This document shows, piece by piece, positions 25,663 through 27,488 of a stretch of DNA of 64,000 nt (its first letter is position 1; the number at the start of each line of letters is the position of its first letter). A model generated the notes under the pieces. It was not told the DNA's origin. It made no database searches and saw only the letters and a program-made list of their open reading frames with translations. This DNA comes from Deltaproteobacteria bacterium (GTDB lineage: Bacteria; Myxococcota_A; Polyangia; Polyangiales; JADJMO01). Location: assembly GCA_016182965.1 (NCBI GenBank), contig JACPFM010000129.1, forward strand, positions 1,366 through 65,365, given 5' to 3'. A program made the position numbers and the translations under genes.

Positions 25663-26775
25663 ATGGATCGCCGCAAGGTCTCCAGCATCGCGCTCGAGCT
25701 GACCGCGTACTGCAACCAGAAGTGCGCGTACTGCTACAACGAGTGGCGCGACGACGGCGGCCAGAGCATCGGCTACACCGAGTCCGAGAAGCTCTTCGCG
25801 CGCATCGATCGCCTGCTCGAGGCCTTCGAGCTCGATCACGTCACCGTCACGGGCGGCGAGCCGTTCGCCCACAAAGACGTGTTCCGCCTCTTCGATCGCC
25901 TCGAGGCGGCGAAGGTGCCGATCCAGATCATCTCCAACGGCGGCCTGATCGACGACGCGTTGGCCGCGCGTCTGAAGGGCTACGACGTCCGCTACGTCCA
26001 GTGCACGCTCAACGCGCCGTCCGCCGAGCTGCACGCCGACCTGGTCGGCGGCGACGGCCATTTCGAGGCCACGCTCGAGGGCGTCCGCGCGCTGAAGCGC
26101 AACGGGGTGCCCGTCGTCGGGTGCGTGGTGGTCACCAAGAAGAACGCACACCTCGTCTCCGACATCCTCGCCCTCTGGCACGAGCTCGGCGTCCGGCAAA
26201 TCGCGATGTCGCGGTTCTCGCCCGCGGGCTATGCGACGCGCGCGGTCGCAGAGCTGCTCCCCACGCGCGACGAGATGACCGTCGCCTTCGAGCAGGCGCT
26301 CCCCTGGGCGCGCGAGCGCGGCATGCGCATGTCGTGCACCATGCCGATCCCGCCCTGCGCGGTCGAGACCGAGCGCTTCGCGCCGATCAAGTTCGGGAGC
26401 TGCCCGATCGGCACGTCGATGCAGGAGCTGGCGCTCGGCCCCGACGGCAAGCTGAAGAACTGCACGCTGCACAAGACCGCGATCGGCGGCGCCGCCGACA
26501 TCCTCGAGGTCGACGATCTGCGCGCGCTCCTCGATGCGCCGGAGATCACCGAGTACCGCAAGCGCCTCCCGGCGTTCTGCGAGGGGTGCATCCACGCGAG
26601 CTCGTGCGGCGGCGGGTGCGGCGCGGCGGCCGAGTGGGTCCTCGGCGATACCAAGGCCACGCCCGATCCGTTCCTCTGGCAGCACATCGACGACGAGCTC
26701 GCCGCGCGCCTCGAAGACGAGCGCACGCGCGCGAGCAGCTCGAAGCAAAGGAGGCGCCTCGATGTCGTCGCATGA
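25663..26775 (+). CDS. Radical SAM/SPASM domain peptide maturase
   Basis: CNQKCAYC, TGGEP, ISNG; SPASM cysteines CPIG..GPDGKLKNC..CEGCIHASSCGGGC. Confidence 0.92.
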   Translation: MDRRKVSSIALELTAYCNQKCAYCYNEWRDDGGQSIGYTESEKLFARIDRLLEAFELDHVTVTGGEPFAHKDVFRLFDRLEAAKVPIQIISNGGLIDDALAARLKGYDVRYVQCTLNAPSAELHADLVGGDGHFEATLEGVRALKRNGVPVVGCVVVTKKNAHLVSDILALWHELGVRQIAMSRFSPAGYATRAVAELLPTRDEMTVAFEQALPWARERGMRMSCTMPIPPCAVETERFAPIKFGSCPIGTSMQELALGPDGKLKNCTLHKTAIGGAADILEVDDLRALLDAPEITEYRKRLPAFCEGCIHASSCGGGCGAAAEWVLGDTKATPDPFLWQHIDDELAARLEDERTRASSSKQRRRLDVVA

Positions 26776-27133
26776 CGTCAAGTCGAAGATCCTCGCGCGC
26801 CGCGCGCGCTTCGTCGCGGCGGCGGTCGCCTCGGCGGGCCTGCTCGGGTGCGGGAGCAAGATGGAGGCGTGCCTCTCGCTCGCACCGGATACGGGCGGCG
26901 ACACGATCTCCGACACGAAACCCGAGGCGTGCCTCACGGTCGACGCGACTATCGACACCGGCGTCGACACCGGCCCGGGCGTCTGCCTCAGCCCCGAGTG
27001 GGACAGCGGCGCGCCTGACGGCGCGACCGACGCCGAACCCGAGGCGTCGGTGTGTCTGAGCATGCCGCTCGACACCGGCGTGTTCGACACCGGGCCCGAA
27101 CCGTGCCTCGCACCACCGCCCGACGGAGCCTGA
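26762..27133 (+). CDS. Putative repeat-containing RiPP precursor / lipoprotein A (123 aa)
   Basis: GGAGG RBS; KILARRARF leader, lipobox LLGC (C30); five xxCL repeats. Confidence 0.8.
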   Translation: MSSHDVKSKILARRARFVAAAVASAGLLGCGSKMEACLSLAPDTGGDTISDTKPEACLTVDATIDTGVDTGPGVCLSPEWDSGAPDGATDAEPEASVCLSMPLDTGVFDTGPEPCLAPPPDGA

Positions 27134-27134
27134 C

Positions 27135-27488
27135 ATGACCCGCGAGTCCGACGCGAAGAAGCGCATCCTCGCCCGCCGCGCGCGCTTCATGGCCGCCGCC
27201 ATCGCCGCGACCGGCATCGCGTGCGCCAAGGTCGAGGAAGGCCCGCCGAGCGACGCCGCCATCGTCGACGCGCAGCCCGAGGGCTGCCTCTCGCCGCCGT
27301 GGGACTCGGGCGCCGAGCCCTGCCTCGGCGCGCCCTACGAAGACACCGGCCCTTCGGTGTGCCTCGAGCCGGAGTACGACAGCGGCCCCGAGCCATGCCT
27401 CGATCCGGCGTGGGACAGCGGCGTCTTCGACACAGACGCCGAGCCGTCGGTGTGCCTGAAGATGGCGCCCGACTCGACGACCGACTGA
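27135..27488 (+). CDS. Putative repeat-containing RiPP precursor / lipoprotein B (117 aa)
   Basis: RILARRARF leader, GIAC (C30); five xxCL-x3-[WYP]-[DE] repeats; paralogue of the upstream gene. Confidence 0.8.
   Translation: MTRESDAKKRILARRARFMAAAIAATGIACAKVEEGPPSDAAIVDAQPEGCLSPPWDSGAEPCLGAPYEDTGPSVCLEPEYDSGPEPCLDPAWDSGVFDTDAEPSVCLKMAPDSTTD

Follow-up and report, generated by a model that had tools for sequence, protein, structure and literature searches.

A radical SAM cassette and leader-tagged Cys-Leu-repeat proteins in Polyangia: the acidic residue at Cys+6 as a lineage pattern

Two small cysteine-containing open reading frames (ORFs), here called A and B, lie directly behind the gene of a radical S-adenosylmethionine (SAM) enzyme with a SPASM domain in a stretch of 64,000 nucleotides from Deltaproteobacteria bacterium (assembly GCA_016182965.1, contig JACPFM010000129.1, positions 1,366 to 65,365). 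We refer to this whole stretch as the window and give coordinates within it. The locus raises the question of what such an enzyme would recognize and modify in A and B. An earlier note on this DNA had proposed a crosslink between each core Cys and an acidic residue six positions further on. The best explanation, which as a whole we hold with somewhat better than even confidence, is that this genome encodes about ten substrates, A and B among them, for a conserved and uncharacterised maturation cassette of Polyangia. This cassette would consist of the SPASM enzyme and a B12-binding radical SAM enzyme fused to a protein isoaspartate methyltransferase (PIMT) domain, and its substrates would be marked by a leader and the motif P-x-x-C-L. 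As part of the same explanation, the Asp at Cys+6 in A and B would be the place where the core meets the acidic D-[STA]-G linker of this lineage, and the family would not require it. The genes concerned are the following.

25663-26775, + strand: radical SAM/SPASM enzyme, 370 residues (Pfam Radical_SAM, 86.7 bits)
26762-27133, + strand: candidate precursor or substrate A, 123 residues (from translation; no Pfam or NCBIfam family above threshold)
27135-27488, + strand: candidate precursor or substrate B, 117 residues (from translation; no Pfam or NCBIfam family above threshold)
27491-29635, + strand: B12-binding, radical SAM and PIMT domains fused in a single ORF, 714 residues (Pfam domains)

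The SPASM enzyme, A, B and the fusion gene form a four-gene run in this order, in which stop and start codons overlap or lie 1-2 nt apart. The start ATG of A, with AGGAGG upstream, overlaps the SPASM stop codon; B begins 1 nt past the stop of A, and the fusion gene begins 2 nt past the stop of B. The reading of A and B as precursor-like was borne out, in that they stand beside a SPASM enzyme and Cys is the focus of their repeats. Translation of 26762-27133 and 27135-27488 reproduced exactly the ten C-L cores that had been listed earlier.

26870-26890, + strand: core A1, CLSLAPD (translation, as for all cores)
26930-26950, + strand: core A2, CLTVDAT, with Asp at +4 and none at +6
26984-27004, + strand: core A3, CLSPEWD
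27053-27073, + strand: core A4, CLSMPLD
27104-27124, + strand: core A5, CLAPPPD, two residues short of the C-terminus
27285-27305, + strand: core B1, CLSPPWD
27321-27341, + strand: core B2, CLGAPYE
27360-27380, + strand: core B3, CLEPEYD
27396-27416, + strand: core B4, CLDPAWD
27453-27473, + strand: core B5, CLKMAPD

The residue counts of the earlier note also agreed with ours: Cys+6 is Asp in eight of the ten cores and Glu in one, with CLTVDAT as the exception; Trp or Tyr occupies Cys+5 in five. Pro, which the note called common at Cys-3, is there in seven. The only other Cys in either protein is residue 30, which closes the lipobox (LLGC in A, GIAC in B). We permuted all mature-region residues of A and B except the C-L pairs in 200,000 trials. 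At least nine of ten cores were acidic at +6 in 3 shuffles, and at any of 17 offsets in 35, figures that have to be read with the repeats of A and B being duplicates of one another and not ten independent events. The regularity of the acid at +6 in A and B is real. Asp or Glu at Cys-6 is equally regular (9/10 cores). Since the Cys-to-Cys spacing in B is 12-13 residues, one Asp is at once the +6 residue of one B core and the -6 or -7 residue of the next, and the repeat unit is equally well readable as D-[ST]-G-P-E-x-C-L-x-P-x-[WY]. Nine close homologues of B are present in the protein database; none is functionally named, and two are entered as 'hypothetical protein'.

The grammar of the family was read from 62 cassette-linked precursors with 258 cores, a set chosen for having at least one C-L. 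Leu follows 268 of their 274 non-lipobox Cys residues. Upstream of the Cys, Pro stands at -3 in 84% of the cores, Gln, Arg or Met dominates at -2, and Pro, Val, Ala or Ile stands at -1 in 97%. Downstream, Ser, Lys, Glu, Thr or Asp is found at +2 and Pro, Val or Ile at +3 in 77%, and an acid is almost absent at +3 to +5 (1-5%, the background being 15%). A fuller form of the core is P-x-[PVA]-C-L-[SKTE]-[PVI]-[AP]-x, after which about five residues are rich in Pro and free of acids. An unbiased set was assembled from 40 dispersed genes for which the leader profile was the sole criterion. A recognisable leader was present in 38 of them, and in 32 of these 38 a C-L stands no more than 80 residues from the lipobox. 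C-L accounts for 108 of the 134 non-lipobox Cys residues, the exceptions lying mostly in a few long proteins. Because this leader-picked set and the larger proteins of the window genome carry C-L too, the substrates are defined by the leader together with P-x-x-C-L.

The acid at +6 follows the clades. It is found in 90% of the ten window cores and in 73% (19/26) of those at loci L066 and L067, whose SPASM enzymes are 72% identical to that of the window. The proportion is 10% of 72 cores at 55-65% SPASM identity, 18% of 114 cores at 45-54% and 39% of 46 cores below 45%. In the nine closest B homologues, 24 of 38 cores have an acid at +6 and 36 of 38 have one at +6 or +7. Family-wide, 63 of the 258 cores are acidic at +6, compared with about 40 expected from composition, and Pro is commoner there (45%). 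The other leader-bearing proteins of the window genome have 19 cores, of which 3 are acidic at +6 and 8 at +6 or +7; the corresponding counts for the leader-picked dispersed set are 20 and 44 of 108. The first acid at or past +3 peaks at +6/+7 across the family. Cores in which no acid occurs between +3 and +12, or ahead of the following Cys, number 61 of 258, and shuffling gives an expectation of 60. A Cys-acid link as conserved chemistry would deplete such cores; since they are not depleted, a universal C-X5-D crosslink is unsupported. The acid-less runs CLKKASPKPCLKKASPKPCL (L094) and CLKPVPQPVPRPCLKPVPPPKPK (L050) both come from loci with full cassettes. Homologues that keep only PxxCL with no bias at +6, the outcome against which the crosslink had been staked, are largely what the family as a whole presents, and the nearest clade keeps its acid. 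The C-X5-D pattern is partly supported at the level of the clade and not as a rule of the family.

The earlier note had also cautioned that the Asp could be linker background, and this caution proved sound: a lipoprotein encoded in the window at 10753-12255 (+ strand) has 20 D-[STA]-G units and no C-L. D-T-G is an ordinary linker idiom of the organism, in whose lipoproteins Asp/Pro-rich linkers are common. This lipoprotein has 500 residues, a signal of the general secretory (Sec) type with lipobox SGAAAC and a long acidic linker of DTGAV type. At its end, a hydrophobic tail with a Cys precedes RRRR, an arrangement that resembles a MYXO-CTERM sorting signal.

A second substrate architecture is present at L036, L039, L040, L042, L043 and L045, and also at L131, where the SPASM enzyme is distant (about 33% identity). 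These substrates combine a Sec lipobox with another hydrophobic segment, repeats of [VI]-G-P-C-L and, at the C-terminus, a conserved tail of the form ..A-I-L-x-R...L-P-x-D-V-x-x-R-L. Of their 41 cores, 32 have an acid at +6 or +7 and none is acid-less. No PIMT domain was found at those of the loci that were examined for it. The tail's A-I-L-x-R is similar to AILARR in the N-terminal window leader, and it may be a shared recognition element.

The N-termini of A and B both consist of K-[SK]-[KR]-I-L-A-R-R-A-R-F, a hydrophobic stretch and a lipobox.

26762-26851, + strand: leader of A, KSKILARRARFVAAAVASAGLLGC, with a twin-arginine n-region, a hydrophobic stretch and lipobox LLGC
27135-27224, + strand: leader of B, KKRILARRARFMAAAIAATGIAC, with lipobox GIAC

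The leader profile (32 positions, built from 64 sequences) gave the family consensus xxDxDRxAILARRARFxAxALAG...C, which is twin-arginine and lipobox-ending with a nearly invariant RR pair. The lipobox consensus is given as [LVI][ASTVI][GAS]C in PMC12462473. TatC is encoded in the genome, and export of the leader-bearing proteins by the twin-arginine translocation (Tat) pathway is possible; the Tat model TIGR01409 gave no match for A or B. Export and lipidation of A and B are predicted from the features of the signal.

Among 401 genomes of the phylum, a SPASM homologue was found in 58 at E<=1e-40 and in 20 at an identity of at least 40%. The leader profile matched 20 genomes at E<=1e-5, and 19 of these were shared with the 20 that have the SPASM enzyme at 40% or more. 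The exceptions are G374, with a leader and no SPASM enzyme (1000 contigs, 90% complete), and G195, with the SPASM enzyme and no leader. A scan of named genomes yielded 80 SPASM loci, mostly in Polyangia. Carriers in this class include Polyangiaceae, Labilithrix, Nannocystaceae, Sandaracinaceae, Paraliomyxa miuraensis (L086) and Nannocystaceae bacterium ST9 (L114). Further loci lie in a few metagenome-assembled genomes labelled Planctomycetota or Victivallales, and those of Chloroflexota are more distant (about 30% identity) and have no partner genes. Of the 44 loci whose SPASM identity is 45% or higher and whose downstream sequence extends for 4 kb or more, 40 carry the B12 gene and 39 the PIMT domain. 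All 55 loci with a B12 gene have it downstream of the SPASM gene and in the same orientation. The precursor genes are found between those of the two enzymes, immediately upstream or at a distance of a few kb, and in several of the closest relatives no precursor lies within 6 kb of the cassette.

The number of leader genes per genome reaches 10-12, with 10 strong ones in the window genome, which has one such SPASM enzyme (next paralogue 29% identical). There, leader and C-L occur together on an OmpA-domain lipoprotein (PF00691, 57 bits), on a 307-residue Cys-rich protein, on two proteins of 150-170 residues and on small proteins such as the C148 gene product with five cores. Dispersed leader-bearing C-L proteins L151, L153, L159 and L176, from two genomes, share a common tail (..DYAKPPPGKS, ..YAPPPPGKR or ..FAEPPPGKS). 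Two loci of Polyangiaceae, L075:4824-5441 and L082:6872-7762, have SPASM enzymes of 57-58% identity, no B12::PIMT gene within reach, and precursors with Cys-dense cores such as CLSICLGVCLQPPC.

The SPASM enzyme has the hallmarks of a general SPASM maturase: CX3CX2C at residues 17-24 (C17/C21/C24) and a C-terminal Cys-rich region containing CX2CX5CX3C. In a 14-sequence alignment, seven further Cys residues are invariant, including those of the latter motif (C232, C247, C267, C306, C309, C315 and C319). Many SPASM maturases, not all, have a leader-binding domain of the PqqD-like type, the recognition element (RRE) of peptides made by the ribosome and modified after translation (RiPPs). No such N-terminal domain was detected here, only Radical_SAM and Fer4_12 exceeding the Pfam cut-offs. 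All NCBIfam matches are far under cut-off, namely ScmE (the best, 95 bits against 400), GeoRSP (77 against 400), ACGX (71 against 400), CefB (55 against 600) and SbtM (51 against 350). The PapB model NF047865 gave 53 bits against a cut-off of 340, which places the enzyme outside that family. The AlphaFold2 model (mean predicted local distance difference test score 87) has SkfB, CteB, SuiB, anSME and PqqE as its nearest PDB folds, about equally close, with template-modelling (TM) scores of 0.67-0.70 for anSME. The modelled fold thus matches those of peptide- and protein-modifying SPASM enzymes. Since SkfB, CteB, SuiB and anSME are as close by fold, homology does not single out thioether formation, and deriving the chemistry from homology was dropped: PDB sequence, profile and fold searches placed thioether, C-C, Lys-Trp and formylglycine enzymes at similar distances. 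A further radical SAM/SPASM enzyme, a paralogue with 29% identity to that of the cassette, is encoded 6 kb upstream in the window (18535-19542, - strand).

The fusion protein has a B12-binding domain (residues 30-135), a radical SAM domain (186-354) and a PIMT/PCMT-type O-methyltransferase domain (525-706). Its Pfam scores (PF02310, 48.5 bits, cut-off 32.1; PF04055, 54.4, cut-off 29.5) correspond to the layout of a class B radical SAM methylase. The PIMT domain matched PF01135 with 92.7 bits against 20.3 and the PDB PIMT entry 4o29 at 1.7e-19. The gene reached no curated NCBIfam subfamily (best TIGR04013, 68 against 251), no housekeeping PIMT equivalog (TIGR00080, 79 against 159), and neither the FxLD (74 against 320) nor the ATP-grasp-system (51 against 380) methyltransferase model.

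PIMT-type enzymes of RiPP pathways convert Asp to isoaspartate via a methyl ester and an aspartimide, mostly on cyclised substrates, according to PMC11285071. Because they mostly act on cyclised substrates, a ring-edge Asp with a small residue after it is a plausible PIMT target in the nearest clade. The D-[ST]-G sites may be PIMT targets, as had been suggested, but this gains no specific support, as the acid at +6/+7 is not tied to the presence of PIMT: it occurs in 78% of cores (32/41) in the PIMT-less precursor type and in 48% in the PIMT-bearing type. At the PIMT-bearing locus L130, the mature part of the precursor holds a single Asp. PIMT as a general explanation of Asp+6 was ruled out on these two grounds, the acid kept by the PIMT-less architecture and the single Asp of L130.

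From these data, we propose the following course. The SPASM enzyme would act on each core Cys in the cytoplasm. Because invariance is confined to C-L and the residues immediately before it, with +2 to +7 varying, the favoured product would be a small ring in which the Cys is joined by a thioether to a neighbouring residue, with no need for that residue to keep the same side chain; it would be of the sactionine type or a promiscuous ranthionine type. Published precedents are CrpC, with promiscuous short-range thioethers on a protein (PMC13692751), and QhpD, with its variable spacing (PMC7876137). The B12 domain would then add methyl groups, and the PIMT domain would O-methylate an Asp at the ring edge, where one lies, to give an aspartimide or isoaspartate. 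Export and lipidation at the lipobox Cys would yield modified peptides tethered to the membrane or, on larger lipoproteins, tethers that carry the modification.

Several points weigh against this explanation. An acid at +6/+7 is enriched family-wide, in 125 of 258 cores compared with about 73 expected, and C-L-x-P-x-[WY]-D-x-G, the form seen in B, recurs in the distant lineages L063 (40% SPASM identity) and L045 (33%); the role of the acid may be under-weighted here. The chemistry that we infer for the cassette is a prediction throughout, and the nearest solved enzyme by sequence profile is PqqE, a C-C crosslinker (3e-30). The cut-offs behind the genome co-occurrence, 40% identity and 1e-5, were chosen after the lists had been seen, the leader profile was partly built from genomes later matched, and related genomes are not independent. 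The curated model TIGR01409 matches 1 of 64 family leaders, at E 0.013, and naming the signal Tat was dropped on this account. The lipid-attachment motif PF06474 stays sub-threshold in A and B (21.2 and 19.2 bits against 24.8).

A wider and more tentative reading, to which we give a little less than even credence, is that of a myxobacterial envelope regulon. Here the lipoprotein signal would double as the leader, and the SPASM enzyme and B12::PIMT protein would modify P-x-x-C-L before export on up to 12 unlinked lipoproteins per genome, including the OmpA-domain protein. The cassette would then be the first radical SAM class of RiPP-lipoprotein hybrids. Under the same regulon reading, the +6 Asp of this lineage could be a second modification site, carrying isoaspartate or an aspartimide at the ring edge.

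The crosslink put forward in the earlier note would have the SPASM enzyme join the Cys sulfur to the beta-carbon of the +6 Asp or Glu as a C-X5-D ranthionine, at least in this clade, with ring size varying among +6, +7 and +8. We consider this unlikely, although several counts favour it: an acid at +6 in 9 of 10 window cores and 19 of 26 in L066/L067, at +6/+7 in 36 of 38 cores of the closest B homologues and in 32 of 41 of the PIMT-less architecture, which has no acid-less cores, together with the family peak of the first acid at +6/+7. The 61 acid-less cores of 258 are at chance level (60) and include CLKKASPKPCLKKASPKPCL and CLKPVPQPVPRPCLKPVPPPKPK beside full cassettes, Pro is the commonest +6 residue (45%), and the other leader proteins of the window genome have the acid in 3 of 19 cores. 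The D-[STA]-G idiom occurs in a protein that lacks C-L, and the PapB model gives 53 bits against 340. In favour of the crosslink, a single enzyme, QhpD, is described in PMC7876137 as making Cys-Asp/Glu thioethers of differing spacing, for example Cys41-Asp49.

Conversion of the Cys itself, either to a thiooxazole-type heterocycle (as by SbtM) or to formylglycine (as by anSME), is in our judgement quite unlikely; it would produce a membrane-tethered metal-binding or reactive repeat. That invariance is limited to C-L and the positions immediately preceding the Cys fits chemistry at the Cys and its backbone neighbours, and the SPASM enzyme is RRE-less, of the size of anSME and close to it in modelled fold (TM 0.67-0.70). 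SbtM is among its NCBIfam matches, but at 51 bits against a cut-off of 350. The sulfatase motif is C-x-P-x-R, which C-L-S-P does not fit. Conservation of neighbouring genes over related loci revealed no conserved sulfatase or metal-handling genes near the cassette. Copper-binding lipoprotein RiPPs with repeated Cys do exist, as described for NedA with its EGKCG repeats (PMC12636315).

It is very unlikely that A and B are ordinary unmodified Cys lipoproteins, serving metal binding or disulfides, with the neighbouring enzymes acting elsewhere. Their modification is predicted, and Asp/Pro-rich linkers are common in lipoproteins of the organism; however, 19 genomes are common to the 20 with the leader and the 20 with the SPASM enzyme among the 401, precursors lie between or beside both enzyme genes at many loci, and C-L at 108 of 134 Cys in the leader-picked set is hard to explain by metal binding alone. 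Least probable is a link at the aromatic +5 residue, either Cys-Trp/Tyr or a cyclophane across [WY]-D-[ST] like those of the three-residue cyclophane RiPPs, which draws on Trp or Tyr at +5 in five of the ten window cores and the recurrence of C-L-x-P-x-[WY]-D-x-G in L063 and L045, but half of the window cores lack the residue, as do all but 9% of the 258 family cores and all but 1% in the 45-54% clade.

Around the four-gene run of the proposed cassette, one further ORF showed conservation.

29618-30478, - strand: ORF of 286 residues with no known family, convergent on the B12::PIMT gene (tblastn conservation)

It is present at 14 of 80 related loci by tblastn, directly after the PIMT end or after the precursors. 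It is kept beside the cassette in part of the Polyangiaceae clade, which includes the B12-less loci L075 and L082. A Pfam search found no family for it, and an Atlas structure search gave weak metallopeptidase-like leads (TM 0.35-0.38), which we do not rely on. It may be an accessory component of the cassette. Directly upstream of the cassette and divergent from it is the gene of an AAA_21 (AbiEii-like) ATPase (24493-25560, - strand), which is found beside the cassette at 0/80 related loci. The same count of 0/80 applied to each of the ORFs at 24038-24460 (- strand), 30550-31170 (+ strand) and 31226-33025 (- strand, 599 residues) and to two upstream ORFs, and the ATPase and these five flanking ORFs were ruled out as members of the cassette. 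Outside the window, the leader regex scan found two tandem small ORFs (G000:C215:63894 and 64194, + strand) whose twin-arginine leader is of another kind, V[IM]GRRKL[ML]KLG.Y.AP.ILGTLTISRNA, and whose short tails are rich in Cys, Pro, Asn and Gly; the two may be another peptide-precursor pair.

The cassette was compared with known systems, and its genes fell within no specific family. The ranthipeptide systems PapB-PapA (freyrasin), SkfB and CteB likewise have a SPASM enzyme beside a small precursor with repeated Cys, and our model folds like SkfB and CteB. The PapB precursor motif is a C-X3-D repeat. Such repeats are absent here, as the window cores are C-X5-D/E in 9 of 10 cases and in the family the spacing varies or the acid is missing. 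The cassette differs from PapB-PapA further in an enzyme that lacks the RRE and scores 53 against 340 with the PapB model, in P-x-x-C-L with a variable or absent acid, and in substrates that have a signal peptide and lipobox, number about ten per genome and in some cases contain folded domains. The Haft-type predicted SPASM systems (ScmE/ScmF, ACGX, the 'Cys-every-fifth' CefB, GeoRSP and SbtM) are the best NCBIfam neighbours and share a short Cys-centred repeat as target, but the cassette enzyme lies far under all their cut-offs and NCBIfam 20.0 has no model for the precursors. The PAMTs (OlvSA and relatives), PIMT-type O-methyltransferases of RiPP pathways that modify Asp within cyclised regions (PMC11285071), share the PCMT fold, and an Asp followed by a small residue stands at the core edge in the nearest cassette clade, whereas the PIMT domain of the cassette is fused to a B12 radical SAM enzyme and the Asp is not conserved in all substrates.

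Nearer in outline are three systems that act on proteins or lipoproteins. According to PMC7876137, QhpD forms three Cys-Asp/Glu thioethers, one of them Cys41-Asp49, and the protein that carries them is afterwards transferred to the periplasm. The likeness lies in several thioethers of unequal spacing, made in the cytoplasm on a leader-bearing, periplasm-bound protein, which on the side of the cassette is predicted. QhpC differs in being one dedicated substrate whose leader is cut by QhpE and which leaves through an ATP-binding cassette exporter, whereas the cassette has neither protease nor exporter, a lipoprotein-type signal and many acid-less cores. In Methanococcus voltae, the SPASM enzyme CrpC acts on short Cys motifs of the protein CrpA, and the ranthionine links reported in PMC13692751 fall in motifs with varied acceptors, 3-4 residues off (ACAGM, CAVD, PCAGD and CPLVL). 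CrpA differs in being archaeal, Cys-rich and cytoplasmic; CrpC has a predicted RRE, and the system has no B12/PIMT partner and no signal peptide. The RiPP-lipoprotein hybrids, or DAG-RiPPs, such as DybA and NedA are modified by MNIO (DUF692) iron enzymes according to PMC12636315. They resemble A and B in the gene arrangement, a repeated-Cys precursor beside a RiPP-type enzyme, and in signal features, the lipoprotein signal of A and B being predicted. In them, as that paper outlines, a repeated Cys motif is modified, lipidation by the general pathway follows, and recognition is independent of a cleaved N-terminal leader; the mining as outlined there covers MNIOs and autoinducing peptides and not radical SAM enzymes. 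Our literature search found no description of the cassette and no paper joining 'RiPP-lipoprotein' with 'radical SAM'; the supplements of PMC12636315 and PMC13692751, which lay outside the search, might list related clusters. A conserved radical SAM system predicted to act on leader-tagged Cys-Leu-repeat lipoproteins is thus apparently undescribed.

These findings suggest a corrected grammar, in which the leader, the Cys, the invariant Leu and the Pro at -3 come first and the +6 Asp is a lineage-specific variable and not a defining acceptor. If the proposed explanation is true, the cassette would extend the RiPP-lipoprotein hybrids beyond MNIO enzymes to radical SAM enzymes. Radical SAM peptide chemistry would then serve membrane-anchored envelope proteins besides diffusible natural products. 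The export signal itself would be the recognition tag, and the leader together with P-x-x-C-L would form a short portable motif for a new modification.

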